Source of the DNA: a virus
Lineage: Duplodnaviria; Heunggongvirae; Uroviricota; Caudoviricetes
Direction: 5' to 3' (one strand)
IMG/VR virus record: IMGVR_UViG_2728369181_000009
DNA: 15,124 bases
The notes beneath the pieces are model-generated. The model did no database searches and had not been told where the DNA came from. It worked only from the letters and a program-made list of their open reading frames with translations. Made by a program: the position numbers and the translations under genes. Below, one piece after another: positions 1 through 14,368 of this stretch (positions within the stretch are counted from its first letter, which is position 1; each line of letters begins with the position of its first letter).

Positions 1-1230
1 ATGTCTAATATTTGGTCAAAAGAAGAAACTCTGTGGAGTTTCGCGCTCTACGGCACAGCCGTTGGTGCAGGCACGCTCTTCCTTCCTATTCAGTTAGGTT
101 CGGCGGGGGCTGTGGTCCTGTTTATTACTGCTCTGGTCGCCTGGCCTTTAACATATTGGCCACATAAAGCCTTATGCCAGTTCATCCTCTCATCGAAAAC
201 ATCAGCAGGTGAAGGGATAACGGGCGCGGTAACACACTACTATGGCAAGAAGATTGGTAATCTGATTACCACGCTGTACTTCATCGCCTTTTTTGTCGTC
301 GTGTTGATATATGCAGTGGCAATTACCAACTCACTTACAGAACAGCTGGCAAAGCATATGGTTATTGATCTTCGCATCCGTATGTTGGTGAGTCTGGGGG
401 TTGTATTAATCCTGAATCTCATTTTTCTGATGGGACGCCATGCCACTATTCGGGTAATGGGATTTTTGGTATTCCCATTGATTGCCTATTTCTTATTTCT
501 TTCTATTTACCTGGTCGGTAGTTGGCAACCTGATCTATTAACAACCCAGGTAGAGTTCAATCAGAATACCCTTCACCAGATATGGATATCGATTCCCGTG
601 ATGGTTTTCGCTTTTAGCCATACGCCCATTATTTCTACGTTTGCCATAGACAGACGTGAAAAATATGGCGAACACGCTATGGATAAATGCAAAAAAATTA
701 TGAAAGTCGCTTATCTCATCATCTGCATAAGTGTATTGTTCTTTGTCTTTAGCTGCCTGCTTTCTATTCCACCTTCGTATATTGAAGCGGCTAAAGAAGA
801 AGGGGTTACCATTTTATCGGCGCTTTCTATGCTGCCGAACGCCCCAGCATGGTTGTCAATTTCCGGGATTATTGTCGCAGTAGTTGCGATGTCGAAATCA
901 TTCCTGGGTACGTACTTTGGCGTTATTGAAGGTGCCACAGAGGTCGTCAAAACAACATTACAGCAGGTTGGTGTAAAGAAAAGTCGTGCATTTAACCGCG
1001 CACTATCAATTATGTTGGTATCGCTGATTACCTTCATTGTTTGTTGCATTAACCCGAACGCGATTTCGATGATTTACGCGATCAGCGGCCCGCTCATTGC
1101 CATGATACTTTTCATCATGCCTACGCTGTCAACGTATCTCATCCCGGCGCTTAAACCCTGGCGTTCCATCGGAAATCTGATTACCCTGATCGTGGGTATC
1201 CTGTGCGTATCGGTAATGTTCTTTAGCTAA
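1..1230 (+). CDS. yqeG: HAAAP-family (serine/threonine-type) amino-acid transporter, 409 aa, polytopic membrane protein
   Basis: ORF fills 1..1230 with ATG at window position 1. Highly hydrophobic with multiple predicted TM helices. The N-terminal LYGTAVGAGTLFLPIQ motif resembles SdaC/TdcC-type transporters. Size and position next to the glyU/ygeR locus match my recollection of E. coli yqeG; the symbol is from memory, not a search. Confidence 0.8.
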   Translation: MSNIWSKEETLWSFALYGTAVGAGTLFLPIQLGSAGAVVLFITALVAWPLTYWPHKALCQFILSSKTSAGEGITGAVTHYYGKKIGNLITTLYFIAFFVVVLIYAVAITNSLTEQLAKHMVIDLRIRMLVSLGVVLILNLIFLMGRHATIRVMGFLVFPLIAYFLFLSIYLVGSWQPDLLTTQVEFNQNTLHQIWISIPVMVFAFSHTPIISTFAIDRREKYGEHAMDKCKKIMKVAYLIICISVLFFVFSCLLSIPPSYIEAAKEEGVTILSALSMLPNAPAWLSISGIIVAVVAMSKSFLGTYFGVIEGATEVVKTTLQQVGVKKSRAFNRALSIMLVSLITFIVCCINPNAISMIYAISGPLIAMILFIMPTLSTYLIPALKPWRSIGNLITLIVGILCVSVMFFS

Positions 1231-1240
1231 TATCCGTTGT

Positions 1241-1285
1241 GGATGGTTCAAAATTGCTTCAATTTTGAACCATCCCAGTTTTCAT
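1241..1285 (+). terminator. Rho-independent terminator of the transporter gene
   Basis: Perfect 15 bp inverted repeat GGATGGTTCAAAATT / AATTTTGAACCATCC (1241-1255, 1261-1275) with a 5 nt loop, followed by CAGTTTTCAT, 11 bp after the stop codon. Confidence 0.6.
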
Positions 1286-1544
1286 AATGTTCATTTGTTA
1301 TTATTCCGCCCTATCACTTCTCTCGTAATATTATATAATTATCAGCTAGTTAAACACACAAAGAGTTCTGAACATCTTAAATAAGACTATTTAAGATACA
1401 TGACGATTGCATTGCGTAAACGCTTTTTATTTACAAAAAATGGGGAAGTATTACGGCGATTGCGAAAAGTCTGAAGCGCTTGAATTAAGATAATATAGAA
1501 AATCAGATACAACAAAAATGGCAGGTAGATGATGTGAAGATAAA

Positions 1545-1563
1545 TTGGAGCGGCGAAGGGAAT
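1545..1563. repeat. Island-distal attachment-site direct repeat (partial copy of tRNA-Gly 3' end)
   Basis: TTGGAGCGGCGAAGGGAAT matches TTGGAGCGGGCGAAGGGAAT at 14216..14235 (3' end of glyU) with a single-base deletion in the G run. Confidence 0.75.
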
Positions 1564-1620
1564 AACACAACAAGCCACAAGACCAGTAATAAAGGCACAT
1601 TCGCGAGTTCTAAAATAGAT

Positions 1621-1644
1621 TCTATACACATTTCTATACACATT
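1621..1644. repeat. Tandem 12 bp direct repeat TCTATACACATT x2; motif recurs near the integrase end
   Basis: Two exact adjacent copies at 1621-1632 and 1633-1644. CTATACACAT recurs inverted at 14051-14060 (overlapping the int start codon) and CTATACAC direct at 14094-14101. Confidence 0.6.
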
Positions 1645-1674
1645 TATCACTCGCTTGGGAATTACACATCCCCT

Positions 1675-1735
1675 GTTATCCGTGATCAAGCTGGTGGATG
1701 ATCACGGATAACCGATATGGGAATCCCCATATCGG
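1675..1735. promoter_or_regulatory. Two adjacent perfect palindromes (14 bp arms with 10 bp spacer; 10 bp arms with 4 bp spacer); probable protein-binding or recombination-accessory sites
   Basis: GTTATCCGTGATCA (1675-1688) pairs with TGATCACGGATAAC (1699-1712). CCGATATGGG (1712-1721) pairs with CCCATATCGG (1726-1735). Confidence 0.45.
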
Positions 1736-1808
1736 CATCGCGTAGTTAATCGTAGTGGCTACCGTAGTAGTTGAGTAGCAGGATGTAACCTGCCAGGAAG
1801 GAAATGAT

Positions 1809-1844
1809 CGTGACTCGCCGTGACATGGCGTGATTAATCGTGAC
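1809..1844. repeat. Phased array of four CGTGA(C/T) direct repeats at exact 10 bp spacing
   Basis: CGTGAC at 1809, CGTGAC at 1819, CGTGAT at 1829, CGTGAC at 1839. The same hexamer forms the inner part of the palindrome arms at 1675-1712. Helical phasing suggests cooperative binding of a protein (Int arm sites, Xis/AlpA sites or a packaging-site array). Confidence 0.5.
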
Positions 1845-1885
1845 ACCAAACAAAAAGCCTTACCCGTAGACTTAATGTAAGGCTT
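1845..1885 (-). terminator. Rho-independent terminator for minus-strand transcription
   Basis: On the minus strand, a 9 bp stem AAGCCTTAC / GTAAGGCTT (1855-1863, 1877-1885) with a 13 nt loop is followed by TTTTTGTTTG. An alternative pairing GTAAGGC (1877-1883) with GCCTTAC (1893-1899) is also possible. Confidence 0.45.
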
Positions 1886-2640
1886 GGCTGTAGCCTTACC
1901 GAACGCTCCGCTCACCGTCGCAGCCTGTCCGGTTTCCGCCACTGATACGGCCTCACATCATCATGCTGGTGGCGTTCCTGTTGCAGCACAACGGAAACAG
2001 GCGCTGAACATCCGTTAAGTTTGCTTGCTGGTTACCGGGTTGAAATGGGTTAGTAGGGGGAGCGGTACGCATTCCACGTATCGGTTTCGTATCCGGTGGA
2101 TGTTCTGCGTACTTTTTTGCACAAGACCAGTAATGGCGGGCTTTCCGCTGGTATGCACTTTTCTTTTTGCGTACCACTTTTGCGCACTTTTTCAAGGTCG
2201 GCTCACAGATTCCCACCATTATGGGATCAGTTAAAGGGGCCGAACAAATCAATAGCTGTGGTGGTATCGTTTTGCATGTCAGGTTTTGACAGGTTTTTAT
2301 GGACTCCGAAAACTCACTGCACCAGATGTGCAATACATCGCGCTCATTTCGTTAACGTCGCGCGCGCGTACTTGTCGCAAAATGTCGCAAAATTTCGTCA
2401 TCGGACCAGAAATAAACCTTACTTCCCCGATGGGGTAATCTGTTACCGACGGTTTAACCGTCTGTGCCAGCAAAACGAAAGAATTTGCGGTTGACTTTAA
2501 GTCAGTCACAACACCCCATCTCACAGGCCGTGCCTTTCTAACTTTTTGCAATGCAATAAGTCAGGTAACGCTATGCGTTCCACCGTGTACACCGCGCCAG
2601 TAAAACCCCCAGATTCGTGGTTTTCCTGAATATCAGGAAT

Positions 2641-2931
2641 CTACCGCCGTAACCGTTCCGGCTTCTTCCACCGGTAAGTATTTTTCGCGCTCTCCCTCCG
2701 TTGTTGAGAACGGCGACGGCATGACAGCAATTCAAGAACCCTGATTCGTATGTCGCACATATCAGTGTCATTAAGCTGGATACCATCACGGCGCATCACC
2801 TCAGCCACCACACGCGCGTAATTTTCGGCGGTGACGGTATCCGGCTGCGTGGCCTCCTGTGTGCCTGTAGCCTGGCTGATTCCGGTAATACTGCGAATTA
2901 TCCCGAGTACTTCGGCTTCGGTCATTATCAT
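2641..2931 (-). CDS. Hypothetical protein, 96 aa, basic C-terminus; last gene of the metallopeptidase operon
   Basis: ORF with ATG at 2931, 35 bp downstream of the peptidase stop, with a weak RBS. The N-terminal two-thirds look protein-like; the Arg-rich tail is less certain. No recognisable motif. Confidence 0.35.
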   Translation of the reverse strand: MIMTEAEVLGIIRSITGISQATGTQEATQPDTVTAENYARVVAEVMRRDGIQLNDTDMCDIRIRVLELLSCRRRSQQRRESAKNTYRWKKPERLRR

Positions 2932-2966
2932 GGCCTAATAAATCGTCGAATGAGTTTGGCCGGGAG

Positions 2967-3638
2967 TTATTCCACCAGCAAAAATGGCGTAGCCCGGTCA
3001 ATGACGTTGATGCCGATTAGCGAGCTAACATTGCGACCATTAATAATGCTATCCCGTTCAAGCAAATGCGCTATTTTTTTCACTTCATACCAATATTGAG
3101 CCATGAGGGCTTTAGTCTTTTCAACAAGTTTAGAAAGCATTAACTCCCTGTTAGTTCGCTTATCTGTGGCGCAGATTAAATCGAGCATGTCATTTACGTT
3201 AGCCATGTCATAGCGATGAGGTAGTGAATACTTTTTGTTGAAAATATCGTTGTTTTCGTAAAGGGCTTCGCTTACTGGTCCGGCGAGGGATACAAAAGCG
3301 GCCTTTATTGCATCGCGCTTTATACCATCCGCGTAGTAACGTATGAAAGGGATAACTTTACCATCCCGCCCAACTACACCAGATTTACTATCCCGCAAAC
3401 GCCCGAGATCGTGGCTGTGAATTATGCTGTGTTTAACAACGCCCAAACACTTGGCCTCATGTACATGTTCGCCAGCAACGTAACCGTATTCATCCATAAC
3501 GGCGATAACCTGTACATCTAAGCGAATAAGCCATGCAGCTACTGCATGGCCCGCTTCGTGGAATGCTACACATCGTTTACCATCGCCTATCCAGTTATAG
3601 AACATTTCCTGCTCATATATCTGGTGAATGGCGCCCAT
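2967..3638 (-). CDS. Standalone zinc metallopeptidase, 223 aa, HEAGH motif (FtsH/M41-like or ImmA/IrrE-like), no ATPase domain
   Basis: Sequence FHEAGHAVAAWLIRLDVQVIAVMDEYG at residues 26-52 contains the HExxH zinc-binding motif in the HEAGHA form typical of FtsH-type protease domains. GAGGG RBS 8 nt upstream. Start ATG overlaps the upstream stop (TAATG). Family assignment is by motif recognition only. Confidence 0.55.
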   Translation of the reverse strand: MGAIHQIYEQEMFYNWIGDGKRCVAFHEAGHAVAAWLIRLDVQVIAVMDEYGYVAGEHVHEAKCLGVVKHSIIHSHDLGRLRDSKSGVVGRDGKVIPFIRYYADGIKRDAIKAAFVSLAGPVSEALYENNDIFNKKYSLPHRYDMANVNDMLDLICATDKRTNRELMLSKLVEKTKALMAQYWYEVKKIAHLLERDSIINGRNVSSLIGINVIDRATPFLLVE

Positions 3639-3814
3639 TACGCGCCCTCGCTTGCCAGTGAGGCCAGAGCCTTAGCCATGAGGCCGCGGGCAATCTGGTG
3701 AACGGTGGGAGCGACGCCGAGATTGGAGCGCTGGCGTTCACGTTCCTGAATGTTGCGTATGGCCTGCATCTGCTCGGCGGACAGCAGGACCGGCTTAACG
3801 TTTGGCTTTCTCAT
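3638..3814 (-). CDS. Small hypothetical protein, about 58 aa, possibly DNA-binding
   Basis: The six-frame ORF 3638..3907 overlaps the upstream gene by 113 bp. An internal ATG at 3814 (MRKPNVKPVLL...) has a GGAG RBS and lies 16 nt after the upstream TAA, so it is the likely start. Its stop overlaps the peptidase start. Confidence 0.4.
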   Translation of the reverse strand: MRKPNVKPVLLSAEQMQAIRNIQERERQRSNLGVAPTVHQIARGLMAKALASLASEGA

Positions 3815-3989
3815 TCTGTTCACTCCAGAACCGTGCATTTGATTCGTTGAGTTGCTGCAGGTTGCGACTCTGGCGATCGAAGTTATTGCGTGCCTTTGCC
3901 GCTTCAAGATCCTGACGGGTCAGCATCGGGCGGTGGGCGCGCTGTGGGTTGCCTGCGGCTAATTTCGGATCATAGATAGGCATGCTCAT
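3795..3989 (-). CDS. Small hypothetical protein, 64 aa
   Basis: ORF begins 6 nt after the stop of the 183 aa gene; hydrophilic, basic/Gln-rich. No recognisable motif. Confidence 0.4.
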   Translation of the reverse strand: MSMPIYDPKLAAGNPQRAHRPMLTRQDLEAAKARNNFDRQSRNLQQLNESNARFWSEQNEKAKR

Positions 3990-3995
3990 ATCTCT

Positions 3996-4547
3996 TTAGT
4001 GTTTTTTGCCCCAGAAGGTGGCGTTGTCAGCATTGATGCTGCGGATTGCGTCTCCTGTAGAAATTATTTTCGGAGCGATATTGTTTGCTTTCATGTAGTC
4101 GCCAACCTGCTCGAGTATATCGATAGCCTGATCCAGATGGATTTCTGACATTGGGTTAGGGTGTACGGCGCTGAACGCCTCAGCAGGGGCGTAGCGCAGC
4201 ACATCGAGCGCAACGATGCGCGGGTCGGCGTCGGGCAGTGCTGAATCGTATTTCGGCGCTACGGCACGTACCAGACGCATGAACTCAGCATTCATTGCTG
4301 TCGGTGCCGTGGAAGTAGCAGACGTGCCATTCAAACCGCGGGAAATCATATCGCTGTCGCGGGTGTACATGCGACGCAGGCGGTCGCCGGTGGCGATGCG
4401 CATTTTGCGTTCTTTCTCGAGTGTCGTTGCAAGACTTGCAATGATGGTCGCAACGGTTCCGCTGCACTGGAACTCCTCTTTACTGCCGTCGGCATACGTC
4501 ACCACGCCATCTTCGCCAGTCACTGCGATGTTTGTAATATCTTTCAT
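3996..4547 (-). CDS. Hypothetical protein, 183 aa; first gene of the five-gene operon
   Basis: ATG at 4547 with GAGG about 10 nt upstream. Preceded by an AT-rich promoter region and followed by four tightly linked genes. No family recognised; not obviously similar to P4 Sid, Delta or Psu as I recall them. Confidence 0.5.
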   Translation of the reverse strand: MKDITNIAVTGEDGVVTYADGSKEEFQCSGTVATIIASLATTLEKERKMRIATGDRLRRMYTRDSDMISRGLNGTSATSTAPTAMNAEFMRLVRAVAPKYDSALPDADPRIVALDVLRYAPAEAFSAVHPNPMSEIHLDQAIDILEQVGDYMKANNIAPKIISTGDAIRSINADNATFWGKKH

Positions 4548-4660
4548 CGGTCAGACCTCAGTATGTTCTATCGGATATTTATGTTTCATTAAACGCAATA
4601 ATGATATTTATTGTTGCAATTATTGCAATGTGTTTTTCTTGTGATAACATGCAAATTGAG
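4548..4660 (-). promoter_or_regulatory. AT-rich promoter/operator region of the five-gene operon, with perfect palindrome TTGCAAT-T-ATTGCAA
   Basis: 15 bp palindrome at 4614-4628 inside an AT-rich stretch, located between the tandem terminators (4705-4768) and the first operon gene. Flanked by inverted GACCTCA / TGAGGTC at 4554-4560 and 4658-4664. Confidence 0.45.
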
Positions 4661-4704
4661 GTCAGAACTCAATGAGTTGGTTCCAAACATGGTTACCGGT
4701 ACAC

Positions 4705-4736
4705 AAAAGCCCGTGCGTCTCCAGCGCGGGCTTTTT
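4705..4736. terminator. Bidirectional intrinsic terminator
   Basis: Stem AGCCCG / CGGGCT (4708-4713, 4727-4732) with extra inner pairs, flanked by AAAA on the left and TTTTT on the right. Confidence 0.45.
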
Positions 4737-4744
4737 ACTGGCAC

Positions 4745-4768
4745 AAAAAAGCCGGGAAAAATCCCGGC
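4745..4768 (-). terminator. Rho-independent terminator ending the replication-module transcript
   Basis: On the minus strand: GCCGGG, a 6 nt loop ATTTTT, CCCGGC, then TTTTTT. Lies 6 bp after the stop of the 95 aa gene. Confidence 0.6.
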
Positions 4769-4773
4769 CTCCG

Positions 4774-5061
4774 TCACTGACTGCAATTTTTCGATCCAGG
4801 GTATTTCCTGAATGCCTTACCATTGGGCTGATGTAATCCCATCCCGGCATGTGCCCGGCTGATGGTTTTGCGCATCTCCCCGAAATTATCCTGCCTTGCT
4901 GGTGGGCGTGCTGCCTTGTGGATACATTCCGCGCGACGTTTTGCCGCCTGCTCCCGTGCCTTGTCATCATTCGCCAGCATGATGACCTCAGCCCACCGCG
5001 CCGCCGCTCTCCGGTACAGACCACGCGCTTCCAGAGCTTCCGCTTTGCTGTCGTGAATCAT
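4774..5061 (-). CDS. Small helical protein, 95 aa, ANR-like (AraC-negative-regulator family) signature
   Basis: Start ATG overlaps the FinO-like stop (ATGA). N-terminal KAEALEARGLYRRAAARWAEV matches my recollection of the ANR family motif (Y..AA..W). Assignment is tentative. Confidence 0.45.
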   Translation of the reverse strand: MIHDSKAEALEARGLYRRAAARWAEVIMLANDDKAREQAAKRRAECIHKAARPPARQDNFGEMRKTISRAHAGMGLHQPNGKAFRKYPGSKNCSQ

Positions 5062-5600
5062 GCGCCTGTTTTCTCCTTTGCTGCCCGACGCTGACGTTTG
5101 CGTTTCTCATTCAGCGCAACCAGCCGCGTTTCTGCGTCCTGTTGTTCCTGTGGTGTCACCTCGCCGCACGGCTGGCATTTCAGGTCGTAGCGTACCCCAC
5201 CAGCCATTAAGGCGCGGTAATAGCGCGGACACTGCGCATAAGATGCCAGCGTCGCACGCAATGCCCCTGGCCCGAATGCCAGCCCCCTGACGGCGAGATC
5301 CTGCATCAGGTCGTCGAATATCCCCACCTTAAGCGGCTTCGGTGCTTCCCGGCTGAATAATTCAGGCCACAACTCAGTGAGGCGGTTAACGCGTCTGCGG
5401 TTTTTTCGCTGCCGTTTGGTCATATGCCGCCACGGTGTTGCCCCTGTGGGCTTCTGCTGCGCTTTCTGGTTACCGGGCATCACTTTATGCGCCGATGTGG
5501 TTTTATCCTGCTGCTGCGCCGCCTGCGTCGTTTTCTGCGGCGTGCCGTAAATACCTTTTGGTTTTCTGTTAATGGTCAGCTTAGTCATGCTTTGCCCCAT
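5058..5600 (-). CDS. FinO/ProQ-domain RNA-binding protein, about 176-180 aa
   Basis: Basic disordered N-terminus (KRQRKNRRRVNRL) followed by LTELWPELFS...PKPLKVGIFDDLMQDLAVRG...LRATLASYAQCPRYYRALMAGGVRYDLKCQPCGEV, which closely parallels the FinO core and the ProQ N-terminal domain (PLKIGIFQDL...RYDLDGNPCGE). An internal ATG at 5588 with a GGGG SD is the likelier start. Confidence 0.7.
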   Translation of the reverse strand: MGQSMTKLTINRKPKGIYGTPQKTTQAAQQQDKTTSAHKVMPGNQKAQQKPTGATPWRHMTKRQRKNRRRVNRLTELWPELFSREAPKPLKVGIFDDLMQDLAVRGLAFGPGALRATLASYAQCPRYYRALMAGGVRYDLKCQPCGEVTPQEQQDAETRLVALNEKRKRQRRAAKEKTGA

Positions 5601-5606
5601 CGTTAC

Positions 5607-5944
5607 AACTGTCTACCAACTGTCTACCGATATAATTGATTGATTTATTTAATGTTATTAACACATAACAAAAAAACAATCTGCAAACTGTCTACCAACG
5701 GTCTACCGCATTAATACATTGATAATTAATGATTTTTACTAAATGGTAGACAGTGTAGACAGTTAAAAGAGAAATTTAAAAAATGCCCCCTTAACTATCT
5801 GTTTTTTATATACCCCCCGTGGTGTAGGAATATAGAAATAACTGTCTACCTCTCTACCACATTGAAAATATCTTTATAATTCAAAATATTAATTGGTAGA
5901 TGGTTGGTAGAGGGTTAAGTGAATCTGTCTACCAACCGTCTACC
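5607..5944. repeat. Replication origin with iterons: at least 10 copies of (A/C)(A/C)C(T/G)GTCTACC in both orientations, separated by AT-rich spacers
   Basis: AACTGTCTACC at 5607, 5618, 5686 and 5840; AACGGTCTACC at 5697; AACCGTCTACC at 5934; CTGTCTACC at 5925; inverted GGTAGACAG / TGTAGACAG at 5745-5762; GGTAGATGG / GGTAGAGGG at 5895-5912. Directly 3' of the primase gene. Confidence 0.7.
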
Positions 5945-5971
5945 TTTACGTTTCAGCTTATAAATTTCGTA

Positions 5972-7777
5972 TTATGTTCTGTCGTTAATCCCTGTAGCTG
6001 CTGGCAACCAGCCATCAGCATCATCATCTAACAGAACATTTGTTATCACTCGCCCTTTATCCGGGCCTTTAGTGCATTTAGCCCGCTTATACTCCTTTCC
6101 GTATTCCGCCATAGCTCCTGGCATATCAGTACCAAAGCGTGTCAGTGATACTGGTTTTCCCAGGCCATGCGCTGACATATAGGCTAAATAAGCATGATAC
6201 AGGTATCGCCTCGGGCTAAATGGCACTATTTCCGCATTGCCCACCATCATTCCTTCACATTTAACCAACGACATCAGATAGCCGCAAAAGTCCACCAGTG
6301 AATCACCTTCGCGCTTTATCAACAGCGCTTCTTCTGATTTTTGCTGCTCATAAAGTAGTCTTTTAGCTTCGTCCTGGTCGGTAAATCGTGTTAGCAAATG
6401 GCGAATCACTACCGCCAGTTCGCCTTCTATCTTTTCCGCCAGCATGGGATCGCGTTCGTTCTCCGGTACGACCTCAGAGAAATTAAATATCACCCTACGA
6501 CGCGAGATCCCCCCGCTTCGGTCACTGAATGACATGGCGTTATTGTTTACCGCAAGCACTACTGCCGGAATACGTGTGGAGTAGGGGGCTTTATGTTTCG
6601 GATCAATTGCCACCTTGTCGCCGCCAGTAATTGCCTTAATTCCTGCACCATCGCCAGCGTAGCGAGTCATATCCGGCATGATAATCAGCGAAAAGCCAAC
6701 TACTAACGCGCGTTCCCTTGCGTCTTCCAGAGCCTTCATGCTTGCCGATACTGTGTTGGCCTTACCCGCCAGCATGGTACAAATCTCAGCCATCACACTT
6801 TTACCGCTTCCGCCTGGGCCTGTTACCTCAAGGAATAACTGCCAGTCGTACCGGTTCGCCAGTACCATGAATAATGCCGCCAGTACGCGATCAGCTTTAC
6901 GCTCATTATCTGCCACCGAACGACGCAGCCACTTCCAGAAATTCGGCGCATGTGTTGCCAGCGTTTCCCCCTCTGCTGGTGGGCTGAACGGTAATTCACT
7001 GGCATTTAACAACCAGTCATTTTTGTTATGCTCCCGAAAATTTCCCGTCCGGGTATCAAATACCCCGTTACTGAATCCAATAAGATTCCTGTCTGCCCCG
7101 CCCATAACAGGCAGGCTCAATTTCATTGTGTCTACGGCAAATTTAATGGCGTTTTGCGAATAACTGATTCCAGCATCAATAAAAATCTTCGCCATAGACC
7201 GCTGGAGTTCCTTATCAGATACAGGCACCCAGACAATTCCGTTGTAATGGTGAACTACATCAGAATCATCATTTATAGCCAGTGCTCTTCCATAATATTC
7301 AAGTAACACTTCCCCTCTCTGGCTGGCTCCCATCTGATTTAGTGCTGGCCTGGATAGGTCAATATTTTTTGTGGCTAATTTCATCGCTGAAACTTCCCCA
7401 CTCTCTGCCTGTTCGCGGATCCGTTGCAGGTAGTCGCGCCAGTTTTCCGGCTCCCGGTCGGTGATACCTTTGTATAATTTCGCGTCCTGTACACCAGCCA
7501 GCGCCAGCTTTTCAGCAATAGCATTGATCTGGATTGGCTCTATCTCCCCCGCGAGATAGACACGCGCAAAGCGACGTTCATCGTCGACAATGCGGATATT
7601 CGCCAGGTCTGCCAGTTGCTTTGGCCCCAGGTAAACAGGAGGCACGTTATCGCCGTGTTTTCGTCCTTCGCTTTCAATCCAGTGTTGAGCATGGGCGTAA
7701 GCATCCGTCCCGGCAAAAATGATTACCTCGGTGAATTTATCCTTCGGCTGATATTTTAAATTCGGTGCGTTTTTCAC
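5972..7777 (-). CDS. Replication primase/helicase, 601 aa (P4 alpha-like; P4-family primase C-terminal NTPase domain)
   Basis: Walker A motif VTGPGGSGKS in the C-terminal half, an N-terminal primase-like region, size and position upstream of the iterons. Start overlaps the upstream gene stop (ATGA). Confidence 0.8.
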   Translation of the reverse strand: MKNAPNLKYQPKDKFTEVIIFAGTDAYAHAQHWIESEGRKHGDNVPPVYLGPKQLADLANIRIVDDERRFARVYLAGEIEPIQINAIAEKLALAGVQDAKLYKGITDREPENWRDYLQRIREQAESGEVSAMKLATKNIDLSRPALNQMGASQRGEVLLEYYGRALAINDDSDVVHHYNGIVWVPVSDKELQRSMAKIFIDAGISYSQNAIKFAVDTMKLSLPVMGGADRNLIGFSNGVFDTRTGNFREHNKNDWLLNASELPFSPPAEGETLATHAPNFWKWLRRSVADNERKADRVLAALFMVLANRYDWQLFLEVTGPGGSGKSVMAEICTMLAGKANTVSASMKALEDARERALVVGFSLIIMPDMTRYAGDGAGIKAITGGDKVAIDPKHKAPYSTRIPAVVLAVNNNAMSFSDRSGGISRRRVIFNFSEVVPENERDPMLAEKIEGELAVVIRHLLTRFTDQDEAKRLLYEQQKSEEALLIKREGDSLVDFCGYLMSLVKCEGMMVGNAEIVPFSPRRYLYHAYLAYMSAHGLGKPVSLTRFGTDMPGAMAEYGKEYKRAKCTKGPDKGRVITNVLLDDDADGWLPAATGINDRT

Positions 7778-8064
7778 TTCTTACCTCCCGCAACCAACAT
7801 TGCCCGGATTTTTTTAATATTCGTGGCTGCACGTCTCGCCACTGCCTGTTGTTTGTTTTCCACCAGAATAAAATCACGCTCAAACTGACGGCGCGGCATT
7901 ACGCAGTCATATTCGTAAGCCTCACGGCGGTAGGTGATATTGCCTGGCGTAACGTGACGAATAACCACCCGTCCCCCGCGTCTGGTGTCCCGGAAAATAT
8001 CACCGGGGCGGATTTCAGGCCGAGAGAGGCCGCTGGCAGTAAAGCCAGAATTTTTCTTTTTCAT
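7774..8064 (-). CDS. Hypothetical small protein, 96 aa
   Basis: ORF translationally coupled to the primase gene; basic and protein-like. No family recognised. Confidence 0.45.
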   Translation of the reverse strand: MKKKNSGFTASGLSRPEIRPGDIFRDTRRGGRVVIRHVTPGNITYRREAYEYDCVMPRRQFERDFILVENKQQAVARRAATNIKKIRAMLVAGGKK

Positions 8065-8068
8065 GGTT

Positions 8069-8269
8069 TTATTTTCCTGTCAGCAGTTCCGGTTTTATTT
8101 CCGCACGAATACAAAGTTCAGAAAAAAATTCAGGAGAACCAACAATCTCATTACTTTTCAGTCGGCATTGTGATTTCACTTTCCCTTTATCCAGGTAAAC
8201 CAGCACGCGTCCGGTGAAATCATCTGGCACATTAAGCACTACGGGTACATGCGCTTCATGATTATGCAT
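8069..8269 (-). CDS. Hypothetical small protein, 66 aa
   Basis: ATG with GGAGG RBS; start overlaps the upstream stop (ATGCATAA). Confidence 0.45.
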   Translation of the reverse strand: MHNHEAHVPVVLNVPDDFTGRVLVYLDKGKVKSQCRLKSNEIVGSPEFFSELCIRAEIKPELLTGK

Positions 8270-8495
8270 GGCTTACATCCTCCAGAGATTTTCTTCTGTA
8301 ACGCGTCTCTGCCACATATTCAGCATAGTCCGACGCAATACTAAGAATCATTTCACCCTCTGACTTGTAGCCACTGGTATTGATAAGAAAATATGCAGCT
8401 TTCATCATGTCAGCAATGCTCAACAATGCGCCCGATGTATCTTCCGGTGCGCCATCAAACTCCTGTTTCAGGGAATTAAAACGATCATCACGCAT
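8262..8495 (-). CDS. Hypothetical small protein, 77 aa
   Basis: 8 bp start/stop overlaps with both neighbours; protein-like composition. Confidence 0.45.
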   Translation of the reverse strand: MRDDRFNSLKQEFDGAPEDTSGALLSIADMMKAAYFLINTSGYKSEGEMILSIASDYAEYVAETRYRRKSLEDVSHA

Positions 8496-8871
8496 GTTTA
8501 CCCCCCTGAATGACCTGATAACCGCAACTGGTCAGCAATTCGATAAATTCCGGCAGTGTGCCGAAACAGCAATCATCACGCAGACGTTCGCAGGATACTT
8601 CAACGCCGTTTTCGTAGTGACTCACCATACACCCGGTAAAATGCAGATCATCATCGTGATGGCACGTTGACGGCTTAATCAGTCGCGCACGTTCCGCCAG
8701 CTCCAGCAATGCTTCAACGCTTCCGGCAATTGCACCATCCGGCAGGTGATAATTACTTACCACGCGTCCATTCTCCACGTTGACCAGTAGCTGCCCGGAA
8801 AATATCTCGTCAAACTGAATGCTGTTAAGGTCAGAAATTGACAGGTTATGCATGGTGCACCTCCTGTACAT
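8488..8871 (-). CDS. Hypothetical protein, 121-127 aa
   Basis: ORF in the coupled operon; alternative start at 8853 (MHNLSISD...). No family recognised. Confidence 0.45.
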   Translation of the reverse strand: MYRRCTMHNLSISDLNSIQFDEIFSGQLLVNVENGRVVSNYHLPDGAIAGSVEALLELAERARLIKPSTCHHDDDLHFTGCMVSHYENGVEVSCERLRDDCCFGTLPEFIELLTSCGYQVIQGGKHA

Positions 8872-9070
8872 CAGCCATGATAATTTTTCCGGCCTTATCC
8901 AGTGCCTGATCGGCTTTCAGCTGCACAAATGCTAAATAATGGGAGATGCATTCTGATTCTCTGGCTGCGTGTTTATGCGCCACACCAGCGATAGCAGAAA
9001 TCTCAATAAGTGAATCCATCAGCGTTTTGATAGCGTCTACCGCTGCATCAGGCCATGTTGCATTACACAT
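8846..9070 (-). CDS. Hypothetical small protein, 74 aa
   Basis: ORF in the coupled operon, overlapping its upstream neighbour by 8 bp. Confidence 0.4.
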   Translation of the reverse strand: MCNATWPDAAVDAIKTLMDSLIEISAIAGVAHKHAARESECISHYLAFVQLKADQALDKAGKIIMADVQEVHHA

Positions 9071-9428
9071 GCTCCACCTCCTGGCGAATACGGGCAGCGA
9101 ATACCATCACGCAGCCATCAGGAGATTGCTGGCGTGCTTCCTGTTCGCTGGTGGCCTCGATGTGAATCACGCGCGGTTGTGCCGTACTCAGGGCGATAAA
9201 ACGCCAGATAAAATTGTTTTCGCATTTCTGAATAAACAGCGTGTTTTCTTCGCGCCCTTTCCATGTTGCCGAGATATAGCCCATGTCATTGAGCATCTCG
9301 CAGGCATCAACCAGCGTATCGGCGGCTACGTGTACAGTGTTTTTACCGTCAGCAATGCAATCACGGTGCACCGCCAGGAAGGTGTATATAAATTTAGGGT
9401 GAGTTTGGGTATGCTGTGTTCCAGCCAT
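9063..9428 (-). CDS. Hypothetical protein, 121 aa; first gene of the leftward early operon
   Basis: Internal ATG at 9428 (MAGTQHTQTHPKF...) with GAGG RBS 7 nt upstream. This is the protein-like C-terminal segment of the artefactual 528 aa ORF and sits directly downstream of the palindromic operator. Confidence 0.5.
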   Translation of the reverse strand: MAGTQHTQTHPKFIYTFLAVHRDCIADGKNTVHVAADTLVDACEMLNDMGYISATWKGREENTLFIQKCENNFIWRFIALSTAQPRVIHIEATSEQEARQQSPDGCVMVFAARIRQEVEHV

Positions 9429-9494
9429 AATCGTTACCTCGTTTAACGGTTTGGTTAGACGCCCTGCATGTGTGCCACCACTGCGGGGCGTTGC

Positions 9495-9527
9495 TGTATA
9501 TACACCACAACAATTGGTGTATATACA
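9495..9527. promoter_or_regulatory. Perfect 13 bp inverted repeat operator (TGTATATACACCA, 7 bp spacer, TGGTGTATATACA) in the divergent control region
   Basis: Read directly from the sequence. Related half-sites ACACC-TTTT-GGTGT (9570-9583) and palindrome GTGTACAC (9587-9594) follow. Lies between the divergent starts at 9428 (-) and 9619 (+). Confidence 0.6.
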
Positions 9528-9618
9528 AATTAAATTTAAGTGTGCTACAGTGTCAAGTGTTTTATCAACACACCTTTTGGTGTAATGTGTACACACCTCA
9601 AAATAACCGGACATTCTG

Positions 9619-9924
9619 ATGGCAACAGGAAACATCAACAGCAGATCGCAAATGAAAAATATCCGCTTCCCCCATGATGTAATCGAGGAAATGGAAAATT
9701 CGAAAACGGAAGGGGAAACAATAGCCGCTTTCGTGATTACAGCCGTTCGCGGTGAAATCGCCCGCCGCCAGGCAGAAGGAAGCGGAGAAAATCCCCTGGT
9801 TTCTTCGCTCGATGCCCTAGCGCAGGTGGAAAAAATCGGAGTCAAAGCTGCCGAGGAAATCGGGCAACTCGTCACCGTCGCGCGTGAAGAACTCCAGCGG
9901 CGCAAAGCTAAAGAGCAGGAATAA
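9619..9924 (+). CDS. Ribbon-helix-helix (Arc/Mnt/CopG-like) DNA-binding protein, 90-101 aa; candidate island repressor
   Basis: From the second ATG (9652): MKNIRFPHDVIEEMENSKTEGETIAAFVITAVRGEI fits the RHH pattern (beta strand, helix A, G-x-T turn, helix B), followed by a charged helical tail. One of only two plus-strand genes in the island, divergent from the early operon. No strong SD at either start. Confidence 0.55.
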   Translation: MATGNINSRSQMKNIRFPHDVIEEMENSKTEGETIAAFVITAVRGEIARRQAEGSGENPLVSSLDALAQVEKIGVKAAEEIGQLVTVAREELQRRKAKEQE

Positions 9925-9933
9925 CCACTATAG

Positions 9934-10182
9934 GTGCCGTGGTGTGAGGAACTACGGTGCATTATTTTACAGGGCAGCGCCATGACCAACAAAGAATCAA
10001 CCAATACACCATCACCGGCACGGAAAAAACAGCGCAGAAAGATAGCGTACGAGCATGAGTCAGACAGATTCGCGCCCTGTGCGTTTGTCCTTGAGAAATT
10101 CCTTAAAGAGTACAGGTGCACAAAAATGGGGTCGCATACCTGGAAAACATCGCGGCATGGCAATGTTAAAGAGCAGGAATAG
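9934..10182 (+). CDS. Small basic protein, 66-82 aa, co-oriented with the RHH gene
   Basis: ORF with GTG at 9934 or ATG at 9982; ends in KEQE-stop on the same 15 bp sequence as the RHH gene. Coding status is moderate. Confidence 0.35.
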   Translation: MPWCEELRCIILQGSAMTNKESTNTPSPARKKQRRKIAYEHESDRFAPCAFVLEKFLKEYRCTKMGSHTWKTSRHGNVKEQE

Positions 10183-10649
10183 CCCACCAGCAAGCCAGCA
10201 TATTCACCATAATGACCCTCAGTTAAACATAGAGTCATTGGTGCAAAGCTGACACATTGCCCACCAGCCGCAAATCTGGCATTGTTGGCGATGCGTTCAA
10301 GTATGTAGCTTTCCCACTGGCGGCCCTCTGCGGTCGCCTTTGTTTTATCCAGAACGAAATCAGACATCAGATTGATCAGCACCTGGCGACCTGACAAAAT
10401 CGCATCAGTCGCGCCACCAGCAAAATTTTTTGCTTTCCGGACAGTGTGACCAACGACATTTTGCAGCAAAATATTCTGCATTTCTGGCGTGCTGTAGTAA
10501 CGGTGATCAGCGCCTTCACTCTGTGCGACCACAACGCTATAATCTGCCTCGTAGACAGTAAGCAATATGGCGCAGTAGGCTATTCGTTCACAAAGGCGCT
10601 CCGGCAACGGGGCGCTTTCTCTTTTTGTAACGGTCAGAGCGTTACACAT
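10183..10649 (-). CDS. Hypothetical protein (about 150 aa protein-like segment) with no in-frame stop before running antisense into the RHH module
   Basis: ATG at 10649 overlaps the AntA-like stop by 8 bp and the first ~150 codons look protein-like. The frame then stays open through the antisense of 9619..10182 (Cys/Ser/Arg-rich junk) to 9063. The 3' end is undefined; a disrupted gene or artefact is possible. Confidence 0.3.
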
Positions 10650-11442
10650 GGCTGTTTTCCTCCATGCGACGGGCTAACCAACGTTGCGAAAGACGAATTA
10701 ATTCAGCTTTCCGCTGGTGGTAGTCCTGGCCTAACTCAATCAGCGTGATATTGCTCTGCTCAAGGTAAGAAAGGTGCTCAAGCTGCAACGTGCTCATGTG
10801 GTCGCGTGGTTCGCCTGTGATGCCGTTCGCCTGCGCCCACTGTTTTGCAGTCATGCCACCCAGCACGATACGCGCCAGCATATTGGCTTCCGTGGTGTAG
10901 TGGTGCTGTAGAGTGTTTTTACCCAGTTCAGCCCGGTACGCCTCCAGCGCGGCGCACATCGGCTTAAAGTAGCTGGCAACGGTGATACGGGCTTTCAGTT
11001 CCCGGCGTAACGCTGCGGAACGCACTGGCGCTACCTTGTGTAGCTCCTCCTCGCATTTGATGAAGTACTGGCGAACGGCGCGGCCCTGTTCGGTGCGTTC
11101 GACCATCGCCAGTTCTTTCGCCATGTTCACGGTAATGATGTACTCAAGAGCTGTTTGCTGGCGAGATTTTGCGCTCACCGGATCGGGTCGGCTCAAATAT
11201 TCAACAACCTCATAATCCACGCTTTCCGTGAAGCCGTATTCTTCAATGCGCCCCTTGATCCACGAACGGAAAACGCGCCCTACACCTAACGCCTTATGCA
11301 ACGCTCTGGCGCTAACAATATTGGTTTCACGCCTGCCAATAACGCCAGAAATAACCGGGATAATTTCGCCGAAATTTTGTTGGCTCTGGTTTTCAGGCCG
11401 AACGAAGCCCTGCCCCTGTACGGGCGTTTTTCGCAGTTTCAT
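10642..11442 (-). CDS. AntA-domain phage antirepressor-like protein, 266 aa
   Basis: Segment ISARALHKALGVGRVFRSWIKGRIEEYGFTESVDYEVV matches the AntA/AntB N-terminal domain signature. AGGAG RBS 6 nt upstream of the ATG. Confidence 0.6.
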   Translation of the reverse strand: MKLRKTPVQGQGFVRPENQSQQNFGEIIPVISGVIGRRETNIVSARALHKALGVGRVFRSWIKGRIEEYGFTESVDYEVVEYLSRPDPVSAKSRQQTALEYIITVNMAKELAMVERTEQGRAVRQYFIKCEEELHKVAPVRSAALRRELKARITVASYFKPMCAALEAYRAELGKNTLQHHYTTEANMLARIVLGGMTAKQWAQANGITGEPRDHMSTLQLEHLSYLEQSNITLIELGQDYHQRKAELIRLSQRWLARRMEENSHV

Positions 11443-11519
11443 AAAAACTCCTGCTATCGAATTAAGTTACTTTTATTTGCTGGTGGATAGCTGGTGGCAA
11501 TAGCCCCGTAGCCATTTAA

Positions 11520-11717
11520 TCAGGTAGCTGTTCCGCGTGATTCCGCAATACGCTGATTAATCCACTCGTCAATTTCACTCTCAACGAAAGCAATAGCTCG
11601 CGAGCCAATTTTAACTGATGCAGGAAATTTACCTTGCCCCATAAGGCGATAAATCCATGCCTTGCTATATCCAGTTCTACGCTGAACTTCTGTTAAACGA
11701 ATAAGCGTATTTGACAT
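11520..11717 (-). CDS. alpA: AlpA-family transcriptional regulator / excisionase-like, 65 aa
   Basis: IRLTEVQRRTGYSKAWIYRLMGQGKFPASVKIGSRAIAFVESEIDEWINQR has the AlpA/MerR-type HTH pattern of CP4-57 AlpA. GAGGT RBS. Placed downstream of a P4-type int gene. Confidence 0.85.
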   Translation of the reverse strand: MSNTLIRLTEVQRRTGYSKAWIYRLMGQGKFPASVKIGSRAIAFVESEIDEWINQRIAESRGTAT

Positions 11718-11786
11718 ATATTTACCTCATAACGTCTACTCAATTTGACGAGGTAATCCTGGCACAGAAATAACGAATATTTTCAT

Positions 11787-11896
11787 ACCCTCAGGCCTAA
11801 TGGTTACCGGAAGGAAATTAACCCTAAGGGTGATGGTAAAATTGACGGGGAAGATAAAAAAATACCCTCAGGGTAACAGTAAATCACCCTCAGGGT
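11787..11896. promoter_or_regulatory. Four copies of near-palindromic ACCCT(C/A)AGG(G/C)(T/C) in the alpA upstream region
   Basis: ACCCTCAGGCC at 11787-11797, ACCCTAAGGGT at 11821-11831, ACCCTCAGGGT at 11864-11874 and 11886-11896, each followed by a GGTA-containing tail. All lie between the stop of the 265 aa gene and alpA. Confidence 0.55.
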
Positions 11897-11911
11897 ATGC
11901 GGTATGGTGCG

Positions 11912-12709
11912 TTAATCCGGCTTTGCGTTCTTTTGGCTGTTGTCTCGGTTAATAGGGCAGGCAGTCCTCTCTATGAGCGTTGCAAGTGCATTACTTGCCC
12001 CCCACTGCTTAAGCTCCCTGGTTATCGCTTCTTGATTTCCCCTGGTGGCAAAATCATTTTCTGGATCGTAATTGGCCCACTCTCTGTTTCTAATCTCAAT
12101 AGCCTTAGCTAATGGGTCTTTATCCCAGTATTTATATAAGTGTATCGGGCGCTCTTGCTCTAACTGCTCTATCCTTGCCCTTAACTCTGCGTTTTCTTTT
12201 TCCAGCATTGCGATTTGGGATAATAAATCATCCTCTGTACGCAACTCTTTCTTTTCAATATCGCGTCCTTGTGCCTCGTCATTTTCAGAAGAGTTAGCGC
12301 CTTCCAGCTTCGTTAACGCGTCAAGGACATCGGGAAAAATTGCGAAAATTTCACCCCTTATAAATCCAATGTTCTCAAATTCGGGATCTTCCCAATAACC
12401 GGACACCAGAAAACCATTTTCATCCCTCTCACCAGGTAAACAACCACGTTTCCGAACCGCATTCAGATTTCTATAAAGAACATCATAATCAAATTCATCC
12501 CGATACGGGTTACAAAAAGATTCCAACAGCTTAAATTCATTTACTGTGTACAGGCGGATATGTTCTCCGCTTATTCTCCTGAGTATCCAAGTTATGACAT
12601 CTGAAACATCATAATCATCACCAGCGACCTTAAGCACGACCTCAAGAAATTCACGTAAAGAAATAAAATCTTTTTTGTATTCGTTTAATTCGGCATGAAT
12701 ATCAATCAT
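11912..12709 (-). CDS. Hypothetical acidic protein with central coiled coil, about 265 aa; accessory gene between int and alpA
   Basis: ATG at 12709 with GAGGTG RBS 6 nt upstream (the track ORF starts two codons earlier at GTG 12715). Asp/Glu-rich, with a heptad-like segment LLSQIAMLEKENAELRARIEQLEQER. No catalytic motif seen. Confidence 0.55.
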   Translation of the reverse strand: MIDIHAELNEYKKDFISLREFLEVVLKVAGDDYDVSDVITWILRRISGEHIRLYTVNEFKLLESFCNPYRDEFDYDVLYRNLNAVRKRGCLPGERDENGFLVSGYWEDPEFENIGFIRGEIFAIFPDVLDALTKLEGANSSENDEAQGRDIEKKELRTEDDLLSQIAMLEKENAELRARIEQLEQERPIHLYKYWDKDPLAKAIEIRNREWANYDPENDFATRGNQEAITRELKQWGASNALATLIERTACPINRDNSQKNAKPD

Positions 12710-12837
12710 ACGCACACCTCAGCGTCCTCTACTGTAGTGGCTGTACCAGTCCGTCGAGGTGTACGGATTTTCGGGAGCGACCCTAGACACAGACTTTTCT
12801 TTCGTCGCTCAAAGTCTACTACTGTATACGCAACCAG

Positions 12838-14052
12838 TCATCCACATTTTCCGAACTTGCCATGCACCACGTTACCGCCATGTTCGAGCGAATCCATATA
12901 GTCGGCGTACCACTGTAGCATCTCGCGCCGCCCGTCCAGATATTGCGCATGGTTGTACGTGCCACGAATTGAGTTTTTATCGACGTGCGCGAGCTGCGTT
13001 TCTATCCACGCAGTGTTATAGCCCTGCTCATGCAAAATGGTGCTCATGGTGTGCCGGAATCCATGACCAGTAACGCGCCCGGCATAGCCGATACGACGAA
13101 TGAGCACATTCATCGCCATTTCACTCATTGGCTTACTGTGGCGAATACGACCGGGGAAAATAAACTGATACTGGCCTGTCATGTTTTTTAACTGCTCCAG
13201 TATTTTTATTGCCTGTTCTGGTAATGGCACGCAATGCGGACGGCGCATCTTCATTCGTTCTTTAGGCACTTCCCACAAACGATTATCAAAATCGATCTCC
13301 CGCCATTCTGCCTGCCGTAATTCCCCGGGTCTGACACCTGTCAGAATTAATAACCGCATTGCCAGTTTGACGATCTGGCTTCCGGTGTACGTATTAAAAA
13401 CGCGAAAAAATTCCGGCAGTTCGTCGGCCTTCAAATAGGCGTAATGCTCTTTTTTATGTGGAGCAAATGCGCTCACCAGGTCAGGGGCTGGATTATATTC
13501 AGCGCGTCCGGTGATGATTGCGTACCGGAACACCTCGCCGCATCGCTGGCGAACCTTACGCAATTTTTCAGTCGCACCACGGTCGTTAAGACGGGAAAGA
13601 ACCGCCAGCAATTCCATCGGCTTAATTTCTGCGATCGGCCTTGCGCCAATGTACGGAAAAACGTCTTTTTCAAACGTCTCGATCATTTCCTCGGCGTATG
13701 ACGATGACCACCTGTCGATCCGCTTTTCGTACCATTCGCGAGCGATACCCTCAAAAGTATTGCCAAATTTGCTCGCCTGTTCTCGCTTTTGGGCTTTTCT
13801 GGCCTCACTTGGATTTATACCACCAATAAGAAGCCTTTTAGCCTCATCCCTTGCAGCCCTGGCATCAGACAGAGACACATCAGGGTACACGCCCAACGAC
13901 AACATTTTGGGCTTTCCTGCAAACCTGTAGCGCAGTCGCCACCCTTTCGAACCGTTCGGCTCAATGAGCAACGAAAGCCCGTTACCGTCATTGAGCGTAT
14001 AAGCCTTTTCTTTCGGCTTCGCACGCCTGATAGCAAGGTCTGAAAGCAGCAT
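12838..14052 (-). CDS. int: P4-family tyrosine integrase, about 404 aa
   Basis: N-terminal LNDGNGLSLLIEPNGSKGWRLRYRF arm-binding-type domain; C-terminal catalytic residues (R in VRPGELRQ, HGFRHT, Y in GTYNHAQY). Adjacent to the tRNA 3' end. The ATG at 14052 (MLLSDLA...) is preferred over the upstream in-frame ATG at 14091. Confidence 0.9.
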   Translation of the reverse strand: MLLSDLAIRRAKPKEKAYTLNDGNGLSLLIEPNGSKGWRLRYRFAGKPKMLSLGVYPDVSLSDARAARDEAKRLLIGGINPSEARKAQKREQASKFGNTFEGIAREWYEKRIDRWSSSYAEEMIETFEKDVFPYIGARPIAEIKPMELLAVLSRLNDRGATEKLRKVRQRCGEVFRYAIITGRAEYNPAPDLVSAFAPHKKEHYAYLKADELPEFFRVFNTYTGSQIVKLAMRLLILTGVRPGELRQAEWREIDFDNRLWEVPKERMKMRRPHCVPLPEQAIKILEQLKNMTGQYQFIFPGRIRHSKPMSEMAMNVLIRRIGYAGRVTGHGFRHTMSTILHEQGYNTAWIETQLAHVDKNSIRGTYNHAQYLDGRREMLQWYADYMDSLEHGGNVVHGKFGKCG

Positions 14053-14127
14053 GTGTATAGCTCCAAAAAATAAATTTTGTCCTATACGCATTACTATACA
14101 CTTCTGTGTGTAGATTCTGGTAGTTGT

Positions 14128-14202
14128 GAGTAGACGTTAATAAACTATGAAAATGGCTGGAAGGCTTGATATTCGTGGGTTTGATGGACTTTAGTAGACG
14201 TT
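14128..14202. promoter_or_regulatory. int promoter / attachment-arm region with two direct copies of AGTAGACGTT
   Basis: GAGTAGACGTT at 14128-14138 and TAGTAGACGTT at 14192-14202. A third copy of AGTAGACGTT lies in inverted orientation at 11731-11740, in the alpA leader. Confidence 0.45.
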
Positions 14203-14216
14203 GAGAAATGTTTGTT

Positions 14217-14290
14217 TGGAGCGGGCGAAGGGAATCGAACCCTCGTATAGAGCTTGGGAAGCTCTCGTTCTACCATTGAACTACGCCCGC
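14217..14290 (-). tRNA. glyU: tRNA-Gly (anticodon CCC)
   Basis: Reverse complement reads GCGGGCGTAGTTCAATGGTAGAACGAGAGCTTCCCAAGCTCTATACGAGGGTTCGATTCCCTTCGCCCGCTCCA, 74 nt, with cloverleaf, CCC anticodon in loop CTTCCCAAG, and encoded CCA. Confidence 0.95.
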
Positions 14291-14307
14291 TTCGAGATGC
14301 GTAAGGC

Positions 14308-14337
14308 ATTATAAACCTTACGCTCTCCTTAGCAAGT
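14308..14337 (-). promoter_or_regulatory. Candidate sigma70 promoter of glyU
   Basis: On the minus strand: TTGCTA, about 17 bp spacer, TATAAT ending roughly 17 nt upstream of the mature tRNA 5' end. Confidence 0.4.
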
Positions 14338-14368
14338 ACCACGCTGCTGACTGCTGATTAATTCGCCA

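Follow-up and report, generated by a model that had tools for sequence, protein, structure and literature searches.

The window analysed here, a stretch of 15,124 nucleotides filed as IMG/VR virus record IMGVR_UViG_2728369181_000009, is a piece of the Escherichia coli chromosome. It carries yqeG at positions 1–1230, then an insert of 12.65 kb, a tRNA-Gly gene and actS, the last label being taken from the related record L001. The insert is a phage satellite of the phage-inducible chromosomal island (PICI) type residing in the tRNA-Gly gene glyU, and positions 1565–1900 are its integrase-distal end. The original prediction had described this repeat-rich end as one helically phased nucleoprotein assembly site. 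It is read here, with somewhat better than even confidence, as a mosaic of four blocks with different histories: the distal attachment (att) arm (1565–1660), a conserved end block (1671–1739), a slot (1741–1850) and a weak terminator (1846–1885).

The boundaries of the island are given by two attachment repeats. The tRNA-Gly(CCC) gene glyU lies at 14217–14290 on the minus strand and contains the integrase-proximal repeat (14218–14237), TGGAGCGGGCGAAGGGAAT, which represents its 3' end. The integrase-distal repeat (1546–1564) is a copy of this 3' end that is shorter by one G. The repeat can be written as TGGAGCGG(G)CGAAGGGAAT, where the bracketed G marks the length difference between the distal and the proximal copy. 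In genomes without the island, yqeG adjoins tRNA-Gly, and the match to window positions 1200–1563 is continuous. Because of the attachment repeats, and because island-free genomes match only up to 1563, the island is taken to extend from about 1565 to 14216. A perfect 16-bp stem with a T-run directly after yqeG (1241–1275) is the terminator of the host gene and lies outside the island.

The integrase gene int (12838–14053, minus strand) encodes a P4-family tyrosine integrase with the Pfam domains Arm-DNA-bind_3, Phage_int_M and Phage_integrase, the first of which (PF13356, E = 2.5e-25) is the N-terminal arm-binding domain. Further island products are AlpA, an AntA-like protein, an Icd-like fusion, a ProQ/FinO protein and a D5-type primase (5972–7777). 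The order of int, alpA and primase corresponds to the layout of Gram-negative PICIs (PMC6092414). Just downstream of the primase gene, a putative replication origin (5607–5960) carries AACTGTCTACC iterons in direct and inverted orientation. The only two matches to the IHF consensus in the window, at 5633 and 5712, both fall within this stretch, which is likely to be the island's own origin. An int-alpA RNA motif (Rfam RF02996, 40.3 bits) was observed at 12726–12793 on the minus strand, between int and a gene for 267 amino acids and not directly beside alpA. Towards the other end, a gene at 2641–2931 (minus strand) encodes a protein of 96 amino acids that belongs to phrog_1561 and has a basic C-terminal tail; searches of Pfam, NCBIfam, PADLOC and PDB yielded no function for it. 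The roughly 1 kb at the integrase-distal end (1565–2640) holds no convincing gene.

The distal end contains a tandem of the 12-bp unit TTCTATACACAT (1620–1643, plus strand), a perfect 14-bp inverted repeat (1675–1688 and 1699–1712, spacer of 10 bp), a perfect 10-bp inverted repeat or hairpin (1712–1721 and 1726–1735, spacer of 4 bp), and three plus-strand copies of CGTAGT (1741, 1751 and 1763), which occur together with GAGTAG in the stretch 1741–1778. These are followed by four CGTGAC/T hexamers (1809, 1819, 1829 and 1839) at an exact spacing of 10 bp and by a 9-bp inverted repeat (1855–1863 and 1877–1885). Every feature listed in the original prediction is present in the sequence at its position, including the CGTGAT that it had noticed inside both arms of the 14-bp palindrome (1681 on the plus strand, 1701 on the minus strand).

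To estimate chance expectations, the full 15-kb window was simulated with a first-order Markov model. An exact 12-bp tandem and a perfect 14-bp inverted repeat with a loop of up to 20 each arose in none of 500 simulations. The helical phasing claimed for the CGTGAY hexamers is borne out as well: in none of 2000 simulations was any 5-mer found four times with a phasing of 10 or 11 bp. Compared with shuffled sequences, the fold of the double hairpin has z = −5.3. The 10-bp inverted repeat alone (about 0.2 expected per window) and the 9-bp stem (about one expected) are each within chance. CGTAGT is not over-represented across the window, with 8 copies observed versus 4.4 expected, and is unusual in its clustering only.

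Probable integrase arm-type sites

The decamer CTATACRCAT, allowing up to one mismatch, has five copies in 15 kb, all of them at the island ends. The distal copies, CTATACACAT at 1622 and 1634 on the plus strand, lie within the 12-bp tandem. The proximal arm-type sites occupy 14051–14103, with CTATACACAT inverted at 14051–14060 over the likely start codon of int, CTATACGCAT at 14082 and CTATACACTT at 14094. The motif differs from the core, is found on both sides of it and nowhere else in the element, and tracks the type of integrase, not the cargo. L034 and L035 are glyU islands with about 84% identity in the proximal arm and 62–65% identity in Int. Their flanks have drifted, and both members of the tandem as well as the copies near int are perfectly preserved, with the layout unchanged. 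Where a satellite uses another integrase, a different tandem stands at each of its ends, namely TAACTACAC at smrA and AGGATACC at tRNA-Ile.

Because the motif is restricted to the ends, kept in diverged relatives and replaced where the integrase is another one, the tandem at 1620–1643 likely behaves as an integrase arm-type site to which, judging from this sequence pattern, Int would bind. The original prediction had considered integrase arm sites for the repeat cluster as a whole. This holds for the 12-bp tandem, whose motif stands at both island ends and follows the integrase type, but not for the palindrome and hairpin, the CGTAGT copies or the CGTGAY hexamers.

In the proposed mechanism, the arm-binding N-terminal domain of Int would dock on the tandem CTATACACAT pair and on the three copies beside int, and the docked Int would bridge arm and core in integration and excision. 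The copy over the start of int would also allow autoregulation. The arrangement resembles the P and P' arms of phage lambda and those of P4/CP4-57-type integrases in that a short, non-core motif stands in tandem on either side of the core, at a distance of 58–115 bp, differs between integrase types and has one copy over the int start. It differs from these systems by the lack of an IHF consensus in either arm of the island.

The conserved end block and its Chi site

The end block (1671–1739, plus strand) comprises about 65 bp and consists of the 14-bp palindrome with a Chi octamer, GCTGGTGG, in its loop (1690–1697), followed by the 10-bp hairpin (1712–1735). A BLAST search with 1540–1910 gave matches in 338 of 5426 complete E. 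coli genomes, and among the matches listed, most cover about 1671–1742 alone. At four loci that were examined, the block lies 135–500 bp inside islands integrated at smrA, tRNA-Ile, bioD and narP, where it adjoins capsid or terminase genes, as in capsid-forming PICIs (cf-PICIs), or PerC genes. Its identity in these satellites is 84–96%, with the block alone aligning. A pattern scan of IMG/VR, with a pattern covering GGTSGATGATCACRGATAA, retrieved the block from 25 further satellite-sized contigs. In the relatives from the E. coli loci and from IMG/VR, only the block and the gene for the 96-aa protein align with the window, and these two are the only elements common to nearly all satellites compared. 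In species-representative genomes, a 22-nt pattern found no block, and a relaxed 15-mer gave chance matches in unrelated phyla only.

The block is shared across attachment sites served by unrelated integrases and is therefore not specific to the integrase of this island. The types of left flank, which follow the att site, and the types of right flank, which comprise cos variants and cargo, combine freely across it. Some relatives retain only part of it: L034 and L035 have the left arm and Chi and then diverge, and L009 and L014 have only Chi and the right arm. Most block relatives also possess an inverted Chi 52 bp beyond the block Chi and, to the right, a lambda-like cosN (GGCKGGCRGTCC) at a distance of 95–313 bp (555 bp in one relative).

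Small open reading frames (ORFs) within the block were considered and rejected, as an indel of 1 nt shifts the frame between aligned variants and the ORFs are not conserved. The hairpins were likewise dismissed as a conserved feature of the block: several of their pairs are broken in most variants, and a covariation test of the three helices gave a weak signal. Perfect hairpins appear to be a trait of this lineage rather than a conserved element. Nevertheless, the double hairpin could work through its fold, as RNA or as single-stranded DNA, for instance as a terminator, an insulator, a stability element or a small RNA, with Chi not being the functional part. On either strand the structure is very stable (z about −5), and three pairs are changed on both sides, which is more than in most shuffles. 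However, these double changes all come from one lineage, and pairing is often lost, with pair 24/44 formed in only 5 of the 19 variants and pair 57/74 in only 7 of them. Neither hairpin is followed by a U-run, no promoter-like site was called in 1565–1900, and Rfam has no match in this region at E values up to 5. Across the window, gathering and permissive Rfam thresholds returned the tRNA and the int-alpA RNA elsewhere and a chance-level GadY outside the region, with no other match. Since L009, L014, L034 and L035 also retain only half of the palindrome, this explanation is considered quite improbable.

The constituent that lies in all of these partial copies is Chi, and the island as a whole is rich in it, with 13 copies of GCTGGTGG compared with 0.43 expected. 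Two of the octamers on the top strand, at 1690–1697 and 1965–1972, are 275 bp apart. In 25 sister satellites (L009–L033), 206 Chi sites were counted in 195 kb. At about 1.06 per kb, this is approximately five-fold the density of E. coli K-12, which has one Chi per 4.6 kb (PMC12315714). Many of these sites are arranged as inverted pairs 26–55 bp apart. In the cos-bearing relatives, the block Chi lies about 100–320 bp inside the terminase-free DNA end and belongs to the strand that has its 3' terminus at this cosQ-side end. By the reasoning of PMC12315714, this is the orientation in which Chi is active for RecBCD entering at the terminase-free end.

The favoured role of the block, as suggested by its position and content, would be to tame RecBCD and to promote exchange. 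The block Chi, together with the twelve other Chi sites of the island, would blunt degradation by RecBCD and promote RecA-mediated exchange, which would also account for the flanks being shuffled at this very point. Recombination may in this way have placed the block beside many integration modules on its left and beside packaging or cargo modules on its right. A parallel exists in Chi-rich lambdoid phages without recombination modules, such as phage LLS (PMC12315714). The satellites share with them a Chi density far above that of the host and, in the cos-bearing relatives, a Chi in active orientation near the terminase-free end. They differ by the lack of an overall strand bias or terminal clustering and by the frequent inverted pairs. 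The paper on Chi-rich phages makes no mention of satellites (PMC12315714).

The slot, its arrays and the packaging question

The region between the block and the terminator varies among related islands. L001 has the same att site as the window, an identical AlpA and an Int that is 94% identical over the aligned 227 residues, and its slot (14178–14513) holds a lambda-like cos site between block and terminator. In L039 (3256–3801), the slot is occupied by the superinfection-exclusion gene sieB, and in L026 by about 1.8 kb of AT-rich cargo beside the conserved block. Judging by these islands, the region is an exchangeable slot, a cargo hotspot.

In the window, the slot contains two arrays, one of CGTAGT and one of CGTGAY. 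On the minus strand, the second (1809–1844) consists of a T-run followed by GTCACG, ATCACG, GTCACG and GTCACG, and it can be described as an orphan cosB-like or iteron-like array. A motif search for CGTGAY in related islands, which the original prediction had put forward as a check, gave a divided answer: the arrays recur in L011 and L037 (both at glyU) and in L038/L280 (smrA), but they are absent from the glyU islands L001, L026, L034, L035 and L039, which belong to the same integrase family where this was checked. In L280, the arrays occur with an unrelated integrase, an AlpA of 37% identity and a primase of another type, and therefore they are not sites for the Int, AlpA or primase of this island. 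The presence in L280 and the absence from L001, L034 and L035 also dispose of the suggestion that the arrays are directionality-factor sites. Sites for AlpA or Xis would be expected to co-occur with the cognate directionality factor and Int inside the att arms, and the arrays lie outside the arm-type sites.

When two haplotypes of the slot were compared, the CGTAGT stretch was found without substitution and the adjoining 22 bp with six changes, and the first two of the four CGTGAY units carry substitutions in the other haplotype. CGTAGT has four copies in the relatives versus three in the window. A BLAST search with 1730–1856 returned nothing relevant in phages or plasmids.

Arrays of a similar design occur at the packaging sites of other satellites. 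In many sister satellites, a T-run and four or five GTCAC units start 88 bp after cosN, i.e., at the position of cosB. The cosN side of this region matches the ends of lambdoid phages, and the array side matches no phage. The IMG/VR satellite L012 has cosN and, about 90 bp further on, an array of four GTCAC units (1196–1345); its protein encoded at 1840–2337 on the minus strand has exactly the sequence and length of RppC (PDB 6HLK, E = 1.7e-101). Other array-bearing sister satellites encode Nu1-like proteins. The Rpp-TerS complex is reported to read a PICI-specific cosB, the elements of which were not defined there (PMC6739421). The GTCAC units are candidates for the R elements of the PICI cosB, with which they are equated by inference.

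The array of the window stands outside such a context. With the lambda form of cosN (GGGCGGCGACCT) or the PICI form (GGCKGGCRGTCC), only chance-level matches at three mismatches were found in the window, none of them near the array, and patterns for the P2/P4 cos and lambda cosN gave no or chance-level matches. Pfam, PHROGs, PDB and tblastn searches of the island detected no Rpp, Nu1-like or TerS gene, and the distal ORFs, compared with Pfam, PHROGs, NCBIfam, PADLOC and PDB, showed no Rpp, TerS or known DNA binder. The array is, furthermore, inverted relative to the cos-bearing relatives. Because cosN, Rpp and TerS are missing and the array is inverted, it is interpreted as a probable orphan or relic of a cosB-type site, which could act only via a protein supplied in trans. 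Compared with the cos of E. coli PICIs such as EcCICFT073, whose cosB is read by Rpp-TerS (PMC6092414, PMC6739421), the island shares int, alpA, primase and origin and a distal packaging region, and the array shares the design of a T-run and four GTCAC units found in the sister PICIs; the differences are the missing cosN, Rpp and TerS and the inverted array.

A packaging site was among the functions named in the original prediction. Such a role is possible, given that GTCAC arrays follow cosN in relatives, but it is weakened by the lack of cosN, Rpp and TerS in the island. In its strongest form, the CGTGAY array, perhaps together with the CGTAGT copies, would be a working packaging site used by a helper TerS or Rpp-TerS in trans, in a pac-like or cos-independent manner. 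The array is non-random, has the design seen at the cosB position of relatives (among them a PICI that encodes RppC), sits in the slot that holds cos in L001 and has been retained at two att sites. Against this stand the absence of a cosN within three mismatches above chance, the inverted orientation, the lack of any Rpp, Nu1-like or other TerS gene in the island, the missing phage or plasmid counterpart in the BLAST search and the two of four units that are substituted in the other haplotype. A working packaging site is thus regarded as unlikely, and the orphan or relic interpretation of the array is preferred.

A different origin of the array is conceivable. Phased GTCACG arrays were found in more than 120 viral contigs of varied sources. 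On prophage contigs, GTCACG at 10-bp phasing occurs inside O-like genes with a DnaT domain, beside lambda-P-like or DnaB genes (L084 7863–7960, L048 1968–2002), and these arrays look like iteron origins of lambdoid prophages. The array in the window could accordingly be an iteron-type site for the replication initiator of a helper phage, serving as a borrowed origin or a decoy. It has direct GTCACG repeats at one helical turn in common with the arrays in the O-like genes, and a 17-mer, ATGTCACGGCGAGTCAC, is common to the window array and one such prophage array. In contrast to these, it is flanked by neither an initiator gene nor an AT-rich unwinding region and lacks an IHF consensus. Homology to phage DNA over a longer stretch was not detected, and the island has a primase, AACTGTCTACC iterons and IHF sites (5607–5960) of its own. 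An iteron-type site is therefore very improbable, and the array is better regarded as an orphan of the cosB type.

A further candidate for a packaging signal lies outside 1565–1900. On the minus strand, 2023–2192 is an in-frame, terS-like fragment with TGCGTAC repeats that is 77–81% identical to the interior of terS from Klebsiella lambdoid phages and has a weak match to phrog_370. This fragment may be a pac-type signal or mimic or the relic of a pseudogene, and it is a better candidate for a packaging signal than the CGTGAY array. The ORF in which it lies (1953–2333, minus strand) was rejected as a gene, since it looks non-coding except for the terS-like fragment. Positions 2294–2364 match stretches for which many E. 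coli genomes carry the annotation "ash family protein", and two copies of the direct repeat TGTCGCAAAA follow at about 2373–2392.

The slot ends at a terminator-like hairpin with a T-run (1846–1885, minus strand), located beyond the stop codon (1953) of the last reading frame that runs leftward. The intrinsic terminator claimed by the original prediction is upheld only in part. The inverted repeat is present at 1855–1885, but the structure is weak: its stem has 6–9 bp and its loop is long, z is −1.2 compared with shuffles, the T-run is on the minus strand only, and the terminator scanner made no call. If active, this weak terminator would end the leftward operon.

The distal end as a whole

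The view of 1565–1900 as one phased site for Int and AlpA, forming an intasome or an excisive complex, draws on several repeat families crowded within 300 bp of the core, on the word GTAGTTG..AGTAG, which is common to the region and the int-proximal arm, and on GTAGAC repeats, in which the int-proximal arm of relatives is rich. It is contradicted by the occurrence of the block (1671–1739) and the arrays (1741–1844) with unrelated integrases and with an AlpA of 37% identity, and by the absence of the arrays from the glyU islands L001, L026, L034, L035 and L039. The arm-type sites, moreover, are closer to the core than the block and the arrays. The single nucleoprotein assembly site of the original prediction is thus not supported and has very little probability left; the mosaic of att arm, end block, slot and weak terminator is preferred.

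Several observations weigh against parts of the mosaic reading. Protein binding at the proposed sites is deduced from patterns in the DNA. For the IMG/VR loci, the retrieval pattern itself accounts for part of the invariance of GATGATCACGGATAA. Of 19 distinct block variants, 3 have a broken Chi, and the Chi sites of the satellites have no strand bias (92 on the top strand, 114 on the bottom strand), unlike those of Chi-rich lambdoid phages. For the arrays, the two cases in which 88 bp separate cosN and the array represent one homologous block and are not independent, and the co-occurrence of GTCAC arrays with Nu1-like or Rpp genes is imperfect. Four islands, representing two haplotypes and two att sites, have retained the array in an identical inverted orientation, which fits a preserved function as well as it fits recent spread. 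Finally, the mosaic reading leaves the CGTAGT repeats without explanation.

A more far-reaching idea, offered as a speculation that is rather less likely to be right than wrong, concerns the Chi block and the orphan array together. The block could be a dedicated "end cap" of satellites, located just inside the exposed cos end, where it would tame RecBCD, guard DNA that encodes no Gam-like inhibitor and, in PICIs and cf-PICIs of E. coli, drive the swapping of integration modules against packaging or cargo modules. The high Chi density of the satellites, with its frequent inverted pairs, would then be part of the same strategy, and the orphan array could let an island without cos exploit or titrate the Rpp-TerS of another element.

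The outcome of the analysis is mostly clarifying, as a striking cluster of repeats resolves into an ordinary satellite attachment arm and exchangeable end modules. For work on phage satellites, it means that a short, Chi-carrying block marks the joint at which integration and packaging modules recombine. Two leads are modestly new: the Chi block itself, in satellites with an approximately five-fold Chi richness over the host, and the GTCAC units as candidate R elements of the PICI cosB.

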